This document shows, one piece after another, positions 1,221 to 58,990 of a stretch of 60,507 nucleotides of DNA. A model generated the notes under the pieces. That model saw nothing but the letters and a program-made list of their open reading frames with translations, was not told the origin of the DNA and did no database searches. Source of the stretch: Gemmatimonadota bacterium (GTDB lineage: Bacteria; Gemmatimonadota; Gemmatimonadetes; Gemmatimonadales; GWC2-71-9); contig JANRJZ010000166.1 of the NCBI GenBank assembly GCA_033763675.1, forward strand, positions 1-60,507, in the 5' to 3' direction. A program made the position numbers and the translations under genes. The stretch's first letter is position 1. Each line of letters starts with the position of its first letter.

Positions 1221-3461
1221 ATGGCCCCGCACCTGGAGACTGCCCTGACCGTGCTGGACCTTGAAGCGGACGCGCTGGAGCAGCGGATCGCGGGGCTGTT
1301 GCAGCAGATGACCCTGGAGGAGAAGATCGGCCAGCTGGCCCTGGTGCCGGGCGCCAGCGGTCACGTCCCCGATGCCCTGGGCCAGGCCCTGCGGGAGGGA
1401 CGGGTCGGTTCCATCCTGAACGAAGTGGACCTCGACACCGTCAACGAACTGCAGCGCATCGCGGTCAAGGAAAGCCGCCTCGGCATCCCGCTGCTGATCG
1501 GCCGCGACGTCGTCCACGGATTCAAGACGGTCTTCCCGATTCCGCTGGGACAGGCGGCGACCTGGAATCCCCGGCTGGTGGCCCACGCCGCCCGGATCGC
1601 CGCGCTGGAGGCGGCGGCGGCGGGGGTCAACTGGACGTTCGCGCCGATGGTGGATATCGGCCGGGACCCGCGCTGGGGCCGGGTCGCCGAGGGCCTCGGC
1701 GAGGATCCCTGGCTGGCCGGCCTCCTCGCCGCGGCCATGGTGCGCGGCTTCCAGGGCAGCGACCTGGCCGAGCCCGGCAACATCGCCGCCTGCGCCAAGC
1801 ACTTCGCCGGCTACGGCGCGTGTGAGAGCGGCCGCGATTACAACACCACCTCGGTGCCCGAGCTGGAGCTGCGCAACGTGCACCTCCCACCCTTCAAGGC
1901 GGCCGTGGATGCCGGGGTCGCGAGCATCATGACCTCATTCAGCGATCTCAACGGCGTCCCCGCCACCGCCAACGAATGGCTGCTCCGCGACGTGCTCCGC
2001 CGGGAGTGGGGCTTCGACGGGCTGGTGGTGAGCGACTGGGAATCGGTGCGCCAGCTGTCGGTGCACGGGCTCACCACCGACGACCGGGCATCAGCCCGGG
2101 AGGCCGCTGCCGCCGGGTGCGACGTCGAAATGACCAGCGCCACTTACGCGGAGCACCTGCCATCGCTGGTGCGGGACGGCGAGGTGCCGCTGGAGCAGGT
2201 CGATGCGATGGTGGCCAACGTGCTGCGGCTGAAGCTCCGGCTCGGGCTCTTCGAGGATCCGTACACCGACGCCGCCCGCTTCCCGGCGGCGCTTAACGCC
2301 GAGCACCTCCACGCCGCCTACGAGGCCGCGGTGGAGAGTGTCGTCCTGCTCAAGAACGCACACGGGCTGCTCCCGCTCCATGCCGACCGGGCACGCGCCC
2401 TGGCGGTGATCGGCCCGCTGGCCGATGACCCGTATGAGCAGCTCGGCACCTGGGTCTTCGACGGCGTCCCCGAGGCGAGCCGCACTCCGCTCTCGGCGAT
2501 CCGGCAGCTGGTGGGTGACCGGGTGGTGCTTCATCACGCCCGTGGACTGGCGACGACCCGCAGCCGGGACCAGGAGGGGTTTGGCGAGGCGGTCGCCTGC
2601 GCCGCGGCCTCCGACGCGGTAATCCTCTTCCTGGGAGAGGAAGCCATCCTCTCGGGTGAGGCGCATTGCCGCGCCGATATCGGGCTGCCCGGCGGCCAGG
2701 AGGCGCTCCTCGACACGCTGGCCGGGACGGGCAAGCCCATTGTGCTGGTGCTGATGGCCGGCCGCCCCCTCGCGCTGGAGCGGGTCGTGGACCGGGTGTC
2801 GGCGCTGGTGTACGCCTGGCATCCCGGCACCATGGGCGGCCCGGCGATCGCGGACCTCCTGTTCGGCGGGGCCGCGCCCTCGGGCAAGCTGCCAGTCACG
2901 CTGCCCAGGGTCACCGGCCAGGTCCCGATCTACTATGCGCACAAGCACACCGGCAAGCCGCCGACCCCCGAAAGCTTCGTGCACATCGACGCGATCACGC
3001 CCCGGGCGCCGCAGGTGTCCGTCGGCAACACCTCGTACCATCTCGACGTATACTACACGCCGCTCTTCCCCTTCGGGTTCGGGCTCGGCTACACCGAGTT
3101 CGAGTACCAGGACATCGCGGTGAGCAGCCCGGAACTGACTCCGGAAGGCAGCATCACCGTGAGCGCCGTGGTGAGCAACGCGGGCGATCGGGAGGGGGAC
3201 GAGGTGGTCCAGCTCTACATCCGGGACCTCGCGGGCAGCACCACCCGGCCGGTGCGGGAGCTCAAGGGCTTTACCCGGGTCCGGCTGGCGCCCGGGGAGC
3301 GCCGCACCGTGGGCTTCACGCTCACGGCAGCCGACCTCGCCTTCACCGGCCGGGGCATGCGGTTCGGCGCGGAACCGGGCGGCTTCCACGCCTGGATCGG
3401 CGGCAGCTCCGAGGCCACGCTGCGGACCGCATTCGTGCTTGCCGAGGCCTCTTCCTCGTGA
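1221..3461 (+). CDS. bglX: GH3 beta-glucosidase (BglX-like, with C-terminal Fn3-like domain)
   Basis: Motifs MTLEEKIGQL, SRLGIPLL, RDPRWGR, CAKHFAGYG, VVSDW (nucleophile), GDEVVQLYIRD...RPVRELKGF. ATG 1221 was chosen over the ORF start at 1068. Confidence 0.92.
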   Translation: MAPHLETALTVLDLEADALEQRIAGLLQQMTLEEKIGQLALVPGASGHVPDALGQALREGRVGSILNEVDLDTVNELQRIAVKESRLGIPLLIGRDVVHGFKTVFPIPLGQAATWNPRLVAHAARIAALEAAAAGVNWTFAPMVDIGRDPRWGRVAEGLGEDPWLAGLLAAAMVRGFQGSDLAEPGNIAACAKHFAGYGACESGRDYNTTSVPELELRNVHLPPFKAAVDAGVASIMTSFSDLNGVPATANEWLLRDVLRREWGFDGLVVSDWESVRQLSVHGLTTDDRASAREAAAAGCDVEMTSATYAEHLPSLVRDGEVPLEQVDAMVANVLRLKLRLGLFEDPYTDAARFPAALNAEHLHAAYEAAVESVVLLKNAHGLLPLHADRARALAVIGPLADDPYEQLGTWVFDGVPEASRTPLSAIRQLVGDRVVLHHARGLATTRSRDQEGFGEAVACAAASDAVILFLGEEAILSGEAHCRADIGLPGGQEALLDTLAGTGKPIVLVLMAGRPLALERVVDRVSALVYAWHPGTMGGPAIADLLFGGAAPSGKLPVTLPRVTGQVPIYYAHKHTGKPPTPESFVHIDAITPRAPQVSVGNTSYHLDVYYTPLFPFGFGLGYTEFEYQDIAVSSPELTPEGSITVSAVVSNAGDREGDEVVQLYIRDLAGSTTRPVRELKGFTRVRLAPGERRTVGFTLTAADLAFTGRGMRFGAEPGGFHAWIGGSSEATLRTAFVLAEASSS

Positions 3462-3474
3462 ATCCCCGAGACCC

Positions 3475-5331
3475 ATGATGAGTGTCATGCCCCGCGATCG
3501 CGAGATCGCGCAGAAGGTCGACCAGCTGCTTGGCCGGATGACGGTCGACCAGAAGCTCGGCCAGATGATCCAGGCCGAACGGATGGCCGCCACGCCGGAG
3601 GATGTGAAGGCCCACCACCTGGGCTCGATCCTGAGCGGCGGGGGCTCCACCCCCGGGCAGAACCGCCCGGCAGACTGGATCGCCATGAACGACGCCTACT
3701 GGCTCGCCTCGGTCAGCGAGGAGGCCGGCCGGGTGCCCATCCCCCTGCTCTACGGGGTGGATGCCATTCACGGGCACGCGAACGTCCTGGGCGCCACCGT
3801 CTTCCCCCACAACATCGGCCTGGGCGCAGCGCACGATCACGACCTGCTGGCGCGGATCGGGCAGATCACCGCCCGGGAGATCCTCGCCACCGGCGTGGAA
3901 TGGACCTTTGCGCCCACCCTCGCCGTGGCCCGGAACATCTGCTGGGGCCGCACCTACGAGAGCTACTCCGAGGACACGGCCCTGGTTGCCTCCTACGCGG
4001 GGCGCTTCGTCCGCGGCCTGCAGGGCGACCTCGGCCGCGATGCGGTCGTGGCATGCGCCAAGCACTGGGTGGGCGATGGCGGCACCACCAACGGCGTGGA
4101 CCAGGGCGATACCGTGCTCCCCGAAGCGGAGCTGGAGCGGGTGCACATGGCGCCCTACCTGCCGGCACTCGAGGCGGGCGTCCTGACGGTCATGGCCTCG
4201 TTCAATAGCTGGAACGGACAGAAGTGCCACGGCCACCGCTACCTGCTCACCGATGTGCTGAAAGGGCGGCTGGGATTCTCCGGGTTCGTCATCTCCGACT
4301 GGGACGGCGCTGACTACCTCTCGAAGGACTTCAGCGAGGCAGTCGCCCTGGCGGCCAACGCGGGGATCGACATGTTCATGGTGTCGGCCGACTGGCGGCG
4401 CTGTCTCGCCACGCTGCAGAGGCTGGTGGGTGCGGGGGTGGTGCCGATGGAGCGCGTCGACGATGCGGTCCGACGCATCCTGACCGTGAAGCACCGCTAC
4501 GGGTTATTCGAGCGGCCTCGCCCCGCGGAGCGCTACTGGTCCCGCCAGGACTGCCTGGGTGCACCGGCGCACCGGGCGGTGGCACGGGAGGCGGTGCGCA
4601 AGTCGCTCGTCCTGCTCAAGAATGCGGGCAATCACCTCCCGCTCGACCGCCGGGCCCGGATCCTGGTGGCCGGGAAGAACGCTGACAATCGGGGGCACCA
4701 GTGCGGCGGCTTTACGGTCGCCTGGCAGGGGACCTCCGGCAACGACCACATCATCGGCGGTACCTCGATCTGGGAAGGGATCCGCGCGGTGGCTCCGGGG
4801 GCGGTCCTCAGCGTGGACGGCGGCGCAGCCGACCCGGCCGCGCATGACGTCGCCGTCGTGGTGATCGGGGAGCGCCCCTATGCGGAGGGGATGGGCGATA
4901 TCCGGACGGAGGAGGTGATCGGCGCCGGGTCCGGCCCGCGGACCGGACCCGGTGCGTCCTCAGCGGGTGACCCCGTCGGGGCCGGATCGGGTCCGGGAGG
5001 GATCACGGCCCGGCTGCCGGCCTACGGCAAGTCGCTGGAGCTTGCCACGCTCCATCCCGAGGACCTGGCAACCATTCGCGCCATCACCGCCCGGAAGATT
5101 CCGGTCGTTGCGGTGCTGGTGTCGGGGCGCCCGCTGGTGGTCACCCAGGAGCTCGCCGAGGCCTCCGCCTTCGTCGCGGCCTGGCTGCCTGGCTCCGAGG
5201 GGCAGGGAGTGGCGGACGTCCTGTTCGGAGACCACCACTTCCAGGGCAGGCTTCCCTTTTCCTGGCCCGCCGGCACCGGCCAGGCGGGGGGGCCGCTCTT
5301 CCCCCTCGGCTTCGGGCTCACGATCGGGTAG
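3475..5331 (+). CDS. GH3 beta-glucosidase / exo-1,3-1,4-beta-glucanase type
   Basis: Motifs GSILSGGGS, YGVDAIHGH, TVFPHNIGLGA, WGRTYESYSED, CAKHWVGDGGT, FVISDW, AAWLPGSEGQG. Confidence 0.9.
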   Translation: MMSVMPRDREIAQKVDQLLGRMTVDQKLGQMIQAERMAATPEDVKAHHLGSILSGGGSTPGQNRPADWIAMNDAYWLASVSEEAGRVPIPLLYGVDAIHGHANVLGATVFPHNIGLGAAHDHDLLARIGQITAREILATGVEWTFAPTLAVARNICWGRTYESYSEDTALVASYAGRFVRGLQGDLGRDAVVACAKHWVGDGGTTNGVDQGDTVLPEAELERVHMAPYLPALEAGVLTVMASFNSWNGQKCHGHRYLLTDVLKGRLGFSGFVISDWDGADYLSKDFSEAVALAANAGIDMFMVSADWRRCLATLQRLVGAGVVPMERVDDAVRRILTVKHRYGLFERPRPAERYWSRQDCLGAPAHRAVAREAVRKSLVLLKNAGNHLPLDRRARILVAGKNADNRGHQCGGFTVAWQGTSGNDHIIGGTSIWEGIRAVAPGAVLSVDGGAADPAAHDVAVVVIGERPYAEGMGDIRTEEVIGAGSGPRTGPGASSAGDPVGAGSGPGGITARLPAYGKSLELATLHPEDLATIRAITARKIPVVAVLVSGRPLVVTQELAEASAFVAAWLPGSEGQGVADVLFGDHHFQGRLPFSWPAGTGQAGGPLFPLGFGLTIG

Positions 5332-20058: not shown

Positions 20059-20131
20059 AGGCGATTAGACGATTGGGCGATTAGGCGATTGGGTGATTGG
20101 GCCGCCTAATCGCCCAATCGCCCAATCGTCC
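20059..20131. repeat. Inverted arrays of 8-nt tandem repeat (RGGCGATT x5 / AATCGCCC x3) between convergent genes
   Basis: Read directly; the two arms are reverse complements and can form a hairpin. Confidence 0.92.
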
Positions 20132-38821: not shown

Positions 38822-38938
38822 AGCGATTGGGCGATTGGGCGATTGGGCGATTAGGCGATAGGGCGATTGGGCGATTGGGCGATAGGTTCGTACCGCCCTA
38901 CCGCCCTACCGCCCTACCGCCCTACCGCCCTACCGCCC
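38821..38938. repeat. 8-nt tandem repeats: GGGCGATT x8 then TACCGCCC x6 (imperfect inverted arms)
   Basis: Read directly between convergent genes; the GH57 TAG stop lies in the right arm. Confidence 0.95.
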
Positions 38939-54105: not shown

Positions 54106-54153
54106 GGGCGATTGGGCGATTGGGCGATTGGGCAATTGGGCGGTTGGGCGATT
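54106..54153. repeat. 8-nt tandem repeat GGGCRRTT x6 downstream of ettA
   Basis: gggcgatt x3, gggcaatt, gggcggtt, gggcgatt. Confidence 0.92.
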
Positions 54154-54179
54154 GGAGGATCTCCGAGCCGCCGAGCCGC

Positions 54180-56482: not shown

Positions 56483-57736
56483 ATGCCTTTCCTCGCGCTC
56501 GCCGCCCTCACGGGAGTCGCGTTTTCCCTCGGAATCCGCACCCCTGCCGTCCCCGACACCCTCACCCGCCGCCCCCCGTCCCCCCCCTGCACCCGGGAGA
56601 GCGGACTCGTCCTCCCCGAGGGGTTCTGCGCCGTGGTCGTAGCCGAACGCCTCGGCCGCGTGCGGCAGCTCGCCGTCCTCCCCAATGGTGACGTCGTCGC
56701 CGCCCTCGGCGGTGCCCAGGGCGGCGTGGTCCTCCTGCGGGACGCCGACGGGGACGGCGCGGCCGAGACCCGGAAGCAGTTCGGCGAGGAGGGAGGCACC
56801 GGCATCGGCTACCGGGACGGATTCCTCTATTTCGCCGCGGCGACCCGGGTGCTCCGCTGGCGCTGGACCCCCGGCGACCTGCTCCCCCAGGGGAGCCCCG
56901 AGACCGTGGTGGACCGTCTCCCCGCGGGCGGCCACGGCGCCAAGACCTTCGCCTTCCTCGGCGGCGATACCCTGATCGTCAACATCGGCTCCGCCACCAA
57001 CAGCTGCCAGCGGGAGGACCGCGCCACCCGCTCCCCCGGCGAGGATCCCTGCACCGAGCTCGAGACCCGCGCCGGCCTGTGGCGCTTCAGCGCCTCCCGC
57101 CCGGGGCAGCGCCCGGCCGACGGGGTGCGGTACGCCACCGGGCTCCGCAACGCGATGGCCCTCGGGGTACACCCGGCCACCGGGGCCCTCTACGCCGCTC
57201 CCCACGGCCGGGACCAGCTCGGTGCCAACTGGGGCTTCACCGACCAGCAGAACGCGGAACTGCCGGCGGAGGAGTTCGTGCGGGTGAATGCCGGCGACGA
57301 CTTCGGGTGGCCCTACTGCTACTACGATCCCCAGCAGCGGAAGAAGGTCCTCGCCCCCGAGTACGGGGGGGATGGCCGGAAGATCGGCCGCTGCGAGAGC
57401 ACCCGGGACCCGCTGGTCGCCTTCCCGGGCCACTGGGCGCCGATGGCCATCGCCTTCTACGACGGCACCCAGTTTCCCGAGCGGTACCGGGGCGGGGCCT
57501 TCGTGGCCTTCCACGGCTCCTGGAACCGGGCGCCCCTCCCGCAGCAGGGGTTCCGCATCGCCTTCGTCCCCTTCGACGCCCGGGGCACCCCCACCGGGAG
57601 CTACGAGACCTTCGCCTCGTCGAGCCGGGGGGCCACGGCCCTCCGGACCGCCGGGGTGGCGGTGGGACCGGAGGGATCGCTGTACATTGGGGACGAGAAC
57701 AGCGGCACCATCTGGCGGGTCATGACTACGCGGTAA
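56483..57736 (+). CDS. PQQ-dependent sugar / sorbosone dehydrogenase family (beta-propeller), secreted
   Basis: LVLPEGFCA, GSATNSC, YATGLRN, HGRDQL, DFGWPYCY, GHWAPM, AFHGSWNR. Confidence 0.85.
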   Translation: MPFLALAALTGVAFSLGIRTPAVPDTLTRRPPSPPCTRESGLVLPEGFCAVVVAERLGRVRQLAVLPNGDVVAALGGAQGGVVLLRDADGDGAAETRKQFGEEGGTGIGYRDGFLYFAAATRVLRWRWTPGDLLPQGSPETVVDRLPAGGHGAKTFAFLGGDTLIVNIGSATNSCQREDRATRSPGEDPCTELETRAGLWRFSASRPGQRPADGVRYATGLRNAMALGVHPATGALYAAPHGRDQLGANWGFTDQQNAELPAEEFVRVNAGDDFGWPYCYYDPQQRKKVLAPEYGGDGRKIGRCESTRDPLVAFPGHWAPMAIAFYDGTQFPERYRGGAFVAFHGSWNRAPLPQQGFRIAFVPFDARGTPTGSYETFASSSRGATALRTAGVAVGPEGSLYIGDENSGTIWRVMTTR

Positions 57737-57752
57737 CCTGGAAGGCCCTGCA

Positions 57753-58310
57753 ATGGCACCACGATGGCTCAGGGCGGCGGCACTGGCCGCGCCCCTCATG
57801 GCGGCCCCGCTCGCGGCCCAGGAGCGGCCCACGCCGCTGGCGGTCGGCGCGGTGGCCCCCGACTTCGCGCTCACCGGCGCCACGCGGGAGGGCGTCCTCG
57901 AACGACCGGTGCGGCTCTCGGATTTCCGTGACCAGACCCTGGTGATCGCCTTCTTCTACCGGGCCCGGACCAAGGGCTGAACCGTCCAAATGGATGCGTA
58001 CCGTGATCAGTACGCGACGCTCATTCCCGAAGGCCGGAAGGTCACCCTGCTGGCCGTCAGCGTGGACTCCGCGGCGGCCCTGGCCGGCTGGGCCCGGGAC
58101 GCGGACTACCCGTTCGGGTTTCTCAGCGACCCCGACGGCGCGATGGGCCGGGCCTACGGCGCCTGGGATCCGAACTACAAGGTGGACAACCGCACCCTCT
58201 ACGTGATCGGGCCCGACGGACGGATCGCCCATGTCATGGCGCCGTTCCGCGAGGTGGACCCGCAGGCCTACCGGGAGCTGGCGGCGGCGATCGCGAAGGC
58301 CAGTCGGTAG
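57753..58310 (+). CDS. Secreted peroxiredoxin-like (AhpC/TSA, BCP-type) selenoprotein, Sec at TGA 57978-57980
   Basis: ORFs 57753-57980 and 57990-58310 are in frame. The joined sequence reads APDF...FFYRARTKG-U-TVQ...LSDPDG...RTLYVIGPDG, with TGA at the peroxidatic TxxC position. There is no other Cys. Confidence 0.85.
57981..58019 (+). promoter_or_regulatory. Putative bacterial SECIS hairpin
   Basis: GCGTAC (57996-58001), loop CGTGATCA, GTACGC (58010-15), plus a lower CGTC/GACG pair. The loop starts 22 nt after the UGA with G at its second position. Confidence 0.65.
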
Positions 58311-58403
58311 GGCGATTGGGCGATTAGGCGATTGGGCGATTGGGCGATTAGGCGATTGGGCGATTAGCCTGCCGCCCTACCGCCCTACCGCCCTACCGCC
58401 TAC
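58310..58403. repeat. 8-nt tandem repeats RGGCGATT x7 then TACCGCCC x3 between convergent genes
   Basis: Read directly; the array starts at the Prx CGG-TAG and ends at the dps TAG. Confidence 0.95.
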
Positions 58404-58879
58404 TGCAGGTGCGACTCCACGAACCACAGTCCCTTGTCCGCCCCGCGGGAGATCTCGGTAAAGAGATCCGCGGTGTCCTTGTCGCCCGCCTTGTCGGCGG
58501 TGTCGATTGCGGCCCGCACCGCCTTGCCGAATCCGGCCAGCGCCTCCGCCACCGCCTTCACCACGCCGGGGGTGCTTTGCGGCCGGGTGGGGTAGGGAGA
58601 GAGGCTGGTCGCCGCGCTCACCGCCCCGAGCGTCCCCATCGCGGTTCCGCCCAGCTGCACGCAGCGCTCGGCCAGGTCGTCAACGTACCCCTTGGTCTCC
58701 TCATGCAGCTTGTCGAACAGCTCGTGCAGCATGAGGAACGTCGTGCCCTTGATGTTCCAGTGCGCCTGCTTGAGTTGCAGGGCCAGGTCGATCGCGTCGG
58801 CCAGCCGGGCGTTGAGCAGGTCCACCATTGCCGCGCGCGTCTTCGCCGGCAAGTCGTTGCGTGTCGGATTCAGTGCCAT
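58400..58879 (-). CDS. dps: DNA starvation/stationary phase protection protein Dps
   Basis: KQAHWNIKG, LHELFD, DDLAER...LGG, DTADLFTEISR..DKGLWFVESH. Confidence 0.95.
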   Translation of the reverse strand: MALNPTRNDLPAKTRAAMVDLLNARLADAIDLALQLKQAHWNIKGTTFLMLHELFDKLHEETKGYVDDLAERCVQLGGTAMGTLGAVSAATSLSPYPTRPQSTPGVVKAVAEALAGFGKAVRAAIDTADKAGDKDTADLFTEISRGADKGLWFVESHLQ

Positions 58880-58934: not shown

Positions 58935-58990
58935 CCTGCCGTCCTGCCGTCCTGCCGTCCTGCCGTCCTGCCGCCCTACCGCCCTATCGC
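58935..58990. repeat. Morphing 8-nt tandem repeat CCTGCCGT x4 > CCTGCCGC > CCTACCGC > CCTATCGC
   Basis: Read directly; the last unit contains the thrC TAG. Confidence 0.9.

Follow-up and report, generated by a model that had tools for sequence, protein, structure and literature searches.

A probable exported selenocysteine peroxiredoxin of Gemmatimonadota, encoded by a gene that is annotated in pieces

Peroxiredoxins that carry selenocysteine (Sec) at the peroxidatic position have PrxU of Eubacterium acidaminophilum as their prototype, which is said to have been described by Sohling and co-workers in 2001. The present study concerns a gene for a protein of this kind in a Gemmatimonadota bacterium (assembly GCA_033763675.1), located in a stretch of 60,507 nucleotides (contig JANRJZ010000166.1, positions 1 to 60,507 of the forward strand) that was analysed as a whole and is referred to below as the window. 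The gene is very probably intact and encodes a one-selenocysteine peroxiredoxin that is exported. The Sec-containing peroxiredoxin (Sec-Prx; TxxU motif, PF00578) is listed as an established bacterial selenoprotein family in a table of a 2026 review (PMC13188914), citing Sohling 2001, and where that source describes the family it has it keeping PxxxTxxU. A table from 2016 assigns Sec-Prx to 78 organisms (PMC5029168), and 253 sequences are given for the Global Ocean Sampling data (PMC2398784). For the periplasm, the ScsB - TlpA - PprX system of Caulobacter crescentus is reported as an experimentally demonstrated case of a peroxiredoxin recycled by a TlpA-type thioredoxin via a DsbD-family protein (PMC3322552). 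Our limited literature searches found neither an account of the present Sec-Prx family in Gemmatimonadota nor an exported Sec-peroxiredoxin.

The window protein resembles each of these systems in part. It shares with PrxU the apparent replacement of the peroxidatic Cys by Sec in the T-x-x-U of an AhpC/TSA domain and a putative Sec insertion sequence (SECIS) directly downstream, and differs from it in having a signal-like leader, Tyr or Phe at the Pro position and a score of 60.7 bits against the cut-off of 270 of the NCBIfam PrxU model (NF040737). The closest solved relative is AhpE (Rv2238c), a 1-Cys peroxiredoxin of Mycobacterium tuberculosis that likewise lacks a resolving Cys; AhpE, however, is cytoplasmic and Cys-based, keeps the Pro (FFPLAFTGIC) and is less than 30% identical by sequence. 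The best NCBIfam match is BCP/PrxQ (E. coli Bcp, PRK09437), and the sources name the annotated fragments of the gene ‘peroxiredoxin Q/BCP’, but the score reaches 62.9 bits against a cut-off of 140 (BCP/thiol peroxidase, NF006960) and there is no Cys five residues past the peroxidatic position. A CxxxxC motif is a feature of BCPs, and it is present in the cytosolic BCPs of the relatives. The scores lie under the cut-offs for both BCP and PrxU, and the protein is therefore classed as a peroxiredoxin of its own subfamily. Its likeness to the Caulobacter pathway is one of neighbourhood, as 43 of 117 loci place CcdA- and TlpA-like genes beside the Sec-Prx gene, and in the window's genome such genes share an operon with a Cys paralogue; here, in contrast to Caulobacter, there is a short CcdA (DsbD_TM only) in place of ScsB, the peroxidase would carry Sec, and the genes linked by neighbourhood are convergent.

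The gene occupies a single frame on the plus strand, from an ATG at 57753 to a TAG at 58308-58310, whose lone internal stop is the TGA at 57978-57980 (codon 76). Translation with table 11 splits this frame into two open reading frames (ORFs), 57753..57980 (75 aa) and 57990..58310 (106 aa). When the TGA is read as Sec, translation yields 185 aa and not a single Cys. The TGA lies in the context ...FFYRARTKG-U-TVQ..., where Thr73 corresponds to the T of TxxC/U, and Tyr69 (TAC, 57957-57959) stands in for the Pro of PxxxTxxC. Over residues 31-160, a range that spans the TGA, the joined protein matches Pfam AhpC-TSA (PF00578) with 3.9e-27 and 95.1 bits (gathering cut-off 26). The features of the gene are as follows:

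57753..58310, plus strand: complete coding sequence of the predicted Sec-peroxiredoxin, 185 aa with U76, TAG stop (one frame with one TGA; AhpC-TSA match; AlphaFold2 model; peroxiredoxin fold)
57753..57818, plus strand: predicted signal peptide, residues 1-22, with probable cleavage after ...PLAA and before QE (our own heuristic; near-invariance of A22/Q23; low predicted local distance difference test (pLDDT) values of residues 1-20)
57957..57959, plus strand: codon of Tyr69, at the conserved Pro position of PxxxTxxC (alignment; Tyr/Phe typical of Sec forms)
57969..57971, plus strand: codon of Thr73, which supplies the T of TxxU (alignment column 59, with Thr in 94% of the 49 Sec forms)
57978..57980, plus strand: predicted UGA selenocysteine codon, U76, peroxidatic position (TGA 129 and TGC 6 among 135 loci; selA, tRNA-Sec, selB and selD in the genome)
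57995..58016, plus strand: putative SECIS hairpin (RNAalifold; invariant codons; minimum free energy (MFE); published model constraints)
58191..58193, plus strand: codon of Arg147, the conserved peroxiredoxin active-site Arg (all 49 Sec forms have Arg in column 137; no variation at R147 among 46 sequences)

The original prediction, made from the letters of the window, had joined the two ORFs into one frame interrupted by TGA exactly at the peroxidatic position, and had read the product as a hidden, Cys-free Sec peroxiredoxin-like protein with Tyr in place of the Pro of PxxxTxxC and without a resolving Cys. The frame, its coordinates and the placement of PxxxTxxC all hold, and translation bears out the 185 residues, the missing Cys and the TAC codon. 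That the protein is a Sec peroxiredoxin is further supported by the TGA/TGC column, the SECIS candidate and the Sec machinery described below.

A six-frame search of 61 related genomes, with the read-through protein as query, yielded, in 49 of them, an orthologue whose frame holds a single TGA, at identities down to 47% and in three families of one order. Across the 55 loci from these genomes that were aligned, the same column holds TGA in 49 and TGC in 6. Scanning further genome contigs added 80 loci, all of them titled Gemmatimonadota (Gemmatimonadales, Gemmatimonadaceae and a few Longimicrobiales), and the combined set of 135 loci has 129 TGA and 6 TGC in this one column, a recurrence well past what chance would give; it is these homologues that answer the question of Cys or TGA at the predicted active site. 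Removal of identical copies left 117 unique Sec genes. In a phylum sample drawn evenly (401 genomes, a tally that includes the unpublished genomes G198 and G222), the gene was matched at E <= 1e-42 in 310 genomes; among the matches listed (150, with 176 more beyond them), 147 had one TGA and 3 had none. Five families of this sample (27 genomes) gave no match to the Sec-peroxiredoxin query. The residues 3' of the TGA are conserved through synonymous change: alignment column 137 is Arg in 49/49 (CGC/CGG/CGA), and column 146 is Gly in all 49 Sec forms with three different codons. This conservation indicates that the frame is translated beyond the TGA. The orthologue at one locus (L052, G036:C6) matches as two pieces in different frames near residue 60, due to a frameshift or an assembly error, in a genome that is 59% complete.

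The protein database contains 76 full-length Cys homologues. The Sec forms, in contrast, are held in public sets only as fragments of 106-107 residues, labelled ‘redoxin domain-containing protein’ or ‘peroxiredoxin Q/BCP’. On these comparisons the gene appears to be a genuine selenoprotein gene that has been mis-annotated, and a lineage-wide member of the established Sec-Prx. Its recognition would correct a systematic annotation error that spans the phylum sample (310/401 genomes).

A recoding signal was sought downstream of the TGA. Six codons, GCG TAC CGT GAT CAG TAC, which start 15 nt 3' of the TGA, are identical at all 18 bases in 49/49 Sec forms; elsewhere in this alignment, the third codon positions of invariant residues have an entropy of 0.25-1.5 bits, and the Cys forms diverge in this block. 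The codons CGT and GAT are themselves atypical, as the other Arg and Asp columns of the alignment are mostly CGC/CGG and GAC. In the larger set, the exact 20-mer is found 15 nt past the TGA in 124 of the 129 loci, and the remaining five each have a single change in the loop. RNAalifold of 112 unique 54-nt fragments gave a 7-bp stem with an 8-nt loop and six invariant inner pairs, and the closing pair covaries (CG 77, UA 27, GC 7, UG 1; none broken), the one UG pair being that of the window. The window hairpin starts 14 nt past the TGA, with its stem at 57995-58001 / 58010-58016 and its loop at 58002-58009 (CGUGAUCA). It has an MFE of -8.5 kcal/mol, a UGA-to-loop distance of 21 nt, and G as the second loop base, followed by U. 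The bacterial SECIS model given in the legend to Fig. 2 of PMC13188914 has a loop of 3-9 nt on a stem of 4-16 bp, a G within the first two loop bases, a UGA-to-loop distance of 16-37 nt and an MFE <= -7.5, and the window hairpin satisfies all four constraints. It is recognised only by comparison, and the case for a SECIS is a comparative one.

The machinery for Sec insertion is present. The assembly (314 contigs, 95% complete, 70.8% G+C) carries selA, selB, selD and, as selC, a 98-nt tRNA-SeC with anticodon tca, and thus all four genes that were looked for; a tRNA scan of the window itself found none, and the tRNA-Sec sits on another contig. The selD gene (C143:817-819, L003) has an in-frame TGA of its own at GAG-U-ACK, with a long hairpin that begins right past the TGA and whose shape is unlike that of the peroxiredoxin (prx) hairpin. 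SelA was present in 46 of the 49 genomes with a Sec form, the three misses being genomes 58%, 85% and 85% complete, and in neither of the two genomes with a Cys orthologue (G049 and G057; 99-100% complete). Formate dehydrogenase-type and AhpD-type selenoproteins were also sought in the window's genome, and none of the 2 Molybdopterin and 4 CMD matches had an internal stop. Two selenoprotein genes have thus been found in the genome so far, Sec-Prx and selD, and Sec-Prx may be a main reason why the lineage keeps its Sec machinery. In our reading the internal TGA is almost certainly decoded as Sec.

An AlphaFold2 model based on 46 family members reached a pLDDT of 91.4, with low values (52-64) at residues 1-20. 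Foldseek listed only peroxiredoxins as matches, and the top eleven were chains of M. tuberculosis AhpE (template modelling score 0.83-0.89 on the target, 27-30% identity), which also leads among solved proteins when sequences are compared (7e-10). Neither the window protein nor the mature part of its Cys homologues has a second Cys, and the window protein is therefore considered a one-Sec enzyme of the 1-Cys type. The N-terminus, MAPRWLRAAALAAPLMAAPLAA|QE, has two Arg followed by an Ala/Leu-rich stretch and an A-Q junction, and A22 and Q23 are nearly invariant across the family. Signal peptides were judged by a home-made rule (K/R, then a hydrophobic 12-residue window), which 101 of 115 unique N-termini passed, that of the window included. 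A signal peptide ending in ...APLAA-QE had been predicted at the outset; the signal-like N-terminus and its A-Q junction stand, with the home-made rule as their measure. A twin-Arg pair occurs in just 19/115 unique N-termini, which makes the Sec export pathway the likelier route, and the protein is probably exported this way.

In the mechanism that we propose, SelB and Sec-tRNA(Sec) would bind the hairpin, and Sec would be inserted at codon 76. The pre-protein would be exported by the Sec pathway, and the signal peptide of ~22 residues cut after Ala22. The selenolate, then in the periplasm and activated by Thr73 and Arg147, would reduce peroxide and be converted to selenenic acid. With no Cys at all in the protein, and hence no resolving Cys, an external thiol would have to recycle the selenenic acid. 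By analogy with the ScsB-TlpA-PprX system of Caulobacter, the likeliest donor would be a TlpA-like thioredoxin of the periplasm that receives its electrons from the membrane carrier CcdA; a GSDH-type (glucose/sorbosone dehydrogenase-like) enzyme encoded next to the gene is a less likely donor.

The residue at the Pro position separates the Sec from the Cys forms. Among 118 de-duplicated Sec forms, 65 have Tyr there, 48 have Phe, 3 have Pro, and Ser and Ile occur once each; in the de-duplicated Cys forms it is Pro in 80/80. On a tree from which the trait columns and the SECIS-encoded residues had been masked, the state changes between Sec and Cys at least 11 times. Well-supported branches provided four contrasts, three of which went the same way, none the opposite way and one without difference (p = 0.25, a test that lacks power). 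With only four supported contrasts and this p value, the link between the change from Cys to Sec and the loss of Pro is suggestive, not established. Two leaderless types of Sec-Prx in the relatives keep the Pro of PxxxTxxU, with the motifs YPGNNTPG-U and FPKADTPG-U (L145, L146 and L147 in G048, G056 and G050; L148 in G041), and the loss of Pro thus appears peculiar to the exported family; neither leaderless type is found in the window's genome. Three other TGA-flagged AhpC/TSA matches in the relatives proved to be ordinary 2-Cys BCPs, in which the TGA is the gene's own stop.

Such a change in the active site raises the question of whether the protein is a peroxidase at all. It could be a genuine selenoprotein with another function, perhaps a periplasmic thiol/selenol oxidoreductase or a redox sensor. 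The Tyr or Phe found in 113/118 Sec forms would agree with this, and so would PrxL of Caulobacter, a peroxiredoxin-like protein reported in PMC3322552 as being without detectable peroxidase activity. Against this stand the conservation of Thr73 and Arg147, the AhpE-like fold and the full PxxxTxxC retained by the Cys orthologues. Accordingly, we consider a function other than peroxide reduction improbable, although it is the alternative that fares best.

The search for a reductant turned to the neighbouring genes. Two of these flank the gene in the window:

56483..57736, plus strand: GSDH-family (glucose/sorbosone dehydrogenase-like) gene, 16 nt 5' of the prx ATG (PF07995, 1.1e-9)
58400..58879, minus strand: Dps/ferritin-like gene, convergent with prx (PF00210, 1.6e-26)

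The neighbours in other loci were typed by targeted tblastn. An attempt to cluster the stop-to-stop ORFs around the gene, all against all, was given up because spurious frames of the 71% G+C DNA dominated it. For eight candidates for conserved neighbours, the sole Pfam matches were DinB_2 and Peptidase_M28, in 13-14 loci each, which were not read as partners. One cluster comprises 14 loci (e.g. L093:1686-2345) in which a DinB_2-superfamily gene lies upstream of the Sec-prx gene in the same orientation.

The original prediction had taken the upstream gene for a PQQ-type (pyrroloquinoline quinone) dehydrogenase that is co-transcribed with the peroxiredoxin and could be its redox partner. The gap of 16 nt on the same strand was confirmed, as was the convergent dps, and 48 of the 117 unique Sec loci have the GSDH gene as their immediate upstream neighbour in the same orientation. 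The wider comparison, however, speaks against a partnership. Among the loci of the 61-genome search the adjacency is confined to a single genus (g1; L007-L035, L038 and L052) and is seen in none of the loci of families f2 and f3; the loci from further genome contigs carry no family labels, so this limit holds for the 61-genome search loci. There, the GSDH-prx pair is always part of a conserved run of housekeeping genes, in the order ABC-F ATPase, small gene, GSDH, prx, in some loci Dps, then threonine synthase. Dps adjoins prx in 10 of the 135 loci. In L011 (G031:C1) prx is inverted relative to GSDH and threonine synthase, unlike in all other loci of the genus, and in L127, L134 and L141 the ABC-F gene and prx are present but GSDH is absent. 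The PF07995 match of the GSDH neighbour is limited to its C-terminal part, residues 215-410, and we know of no electron path from a GSDH to a peroxiredoxin. A role of this dehydrogenase as redox partner is thus quite unlikely, and the claim was given up in favour of the genes that adjoin 43 loci instead.

These genes, TlpA-like and/or CcdA (DsbD_TM), lie immediately downstream of prx and convergent with it in 43 of the 117 unique Sec loci, and both are present in 38. Among the f3 loci, the Sec form is <= 1.5 kb from tblastn matches to TlpA or CcdA in 10/11; the f3 genomes searched with this query yielded nothing further except one leaderless Sec-Prx. In the window's own genome, contig C42 (L142) holds an operon of CcdA (3115-3831), a TlpA-like protein with WCSNC (2609-3307) and a Cys-Prx (2015-2605), all on the minus strand. 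This Cys-Prx paralogue is exported and 39% identical to the Sec-Prx, and the operon is a complete candidate pathway for peroxide reduction in the envelope. Given the CcdA/TlpA neighbourhood and the precedent of the Caulobacter pathway, a CcdA-fed TlpA-like thioredoxin appears likelier to be the reductant of the Sec-Prx than the GSDH-type dehydrogenase.

Several observations weigh against the reading of the gene as one for an exported Sec-peroxiredoxin that is served by such a pathway. The hairpin taken alone is moderately better than shuffled sequences at most (z -1.92; 9/200 shuffles equally good), the 63 nt from the TGA fold no better than shuffles (z -0.37), no SECIS family appeared among the Rfam matches to 57700-58400 at E <= 10, and the U-G wobble that closes the window's stem is the sole case among the 112 fragments. 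The scores against NF006960 and NF040737 fall short of the cut-offs, and the Pro of PxxxTxxC, which is deemed universal in peroxiredoxins, is Tyr here, so that peroxidase chemistry is not guaranteed. Of the unique N-termini, 14/115 fail the home-made signal-peptide rule. The TlpA and CcdA genes are convergent with prx rather than co-transcribed, and in the window's genome they lie apart from the Sec gene; 25/117 loci have neither neighbour, three of these with <100 nt of downstream flank. Sec insertion, export and activity are, moreover, all deduced from comparison.

Taken further, Sec together with the loss of Pro could represent a remodelled active site, and the protein the terminal peroxidase of a CcdA -> TlpA path, which would give soil Gemmatimonadota a characteristic, selenium-dependent defence of the envelope against peroxide. 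We put this forward tentatively, as a possible reading rather than the expected one. The CcdA/TlpA neighbourhood and the pattern of Sec with Pro loss may be new here, and the family offers a natural series of Cys/Sec and Pro/Tyr forms for studying what selenium brings to a peroxiredoxin in an oxidising envelope.

The UGA could also be decoded otherwise, as Trp, Cys or Gly by read-through or under a variant code, or serve as a site of regulated termination. One public protein (P0029), a full-length copy of a Sec form, does show W where the TGA lies, evidently because some pipeline had translated it with TGA=W. In the window's genome, however, TGA ends 1104 of 1902 open frames of >= 500 codons and is the commonest terminator of long frames, and in several relatives it also serves as the terminal stop of the prx gene, so a variant genetic code does not explain the TGA. 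Internal stops are likewise absent from 10 of the 11 AhpC-TSA matches in the genome, a TGA being present in the remaining one, and from every Sec-machinery gene except selD. The dedicated tRNA-Sec with selA, selB and selD, the presence of SelA where the Sec form is present, and the invariant hairpin that fits the SECIS model all argue for Sec, and any other decoding of the UGA is very unlikely.

A pseudogene, two unrelated ORFs or a sequencing error, as might be supposed from a gene that callers split and that public databases carry in its Sec forms only as C-terminal pieces of 106-107 aa, is excluded in our view by the recurrence of the TGA in 129/135 loci at identities down to 47%, by synonymous change with amino-acid conservation on either side of it, and by L044, which has CTG where the second ORF would need its internal ATG start.

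Between the convergent prx and dps genes, a further element was observed:

58310..58400, no strand: intergenic octamer arrays, GGGCGATT x7 then CCTACCGC x4 (Tandem Repeats Finder; pairing visible in cmscan alignments)

The arrays can pair as a long hairpin and possibly act as terminators. The Rfam matches in 57700-58400 (miRNA/snoRNA) fall on this octamer repeat and were dismissed as chance, including the miRNA family names given by cmscan; the pairing itself is shown by the alignments. Further arrays are located in the window at 20060-20102, 38823-38938, 54106-54155 and 58935-58985, of the GGGCGATT type and often followed by the TACCGCCC/CCTACCGC type. A regular-expression search for >= 3 units of the GGGCGATT type found 94 arrays in the genome, and the octamer arrays look like a genome-wide family of intergenic repeats.

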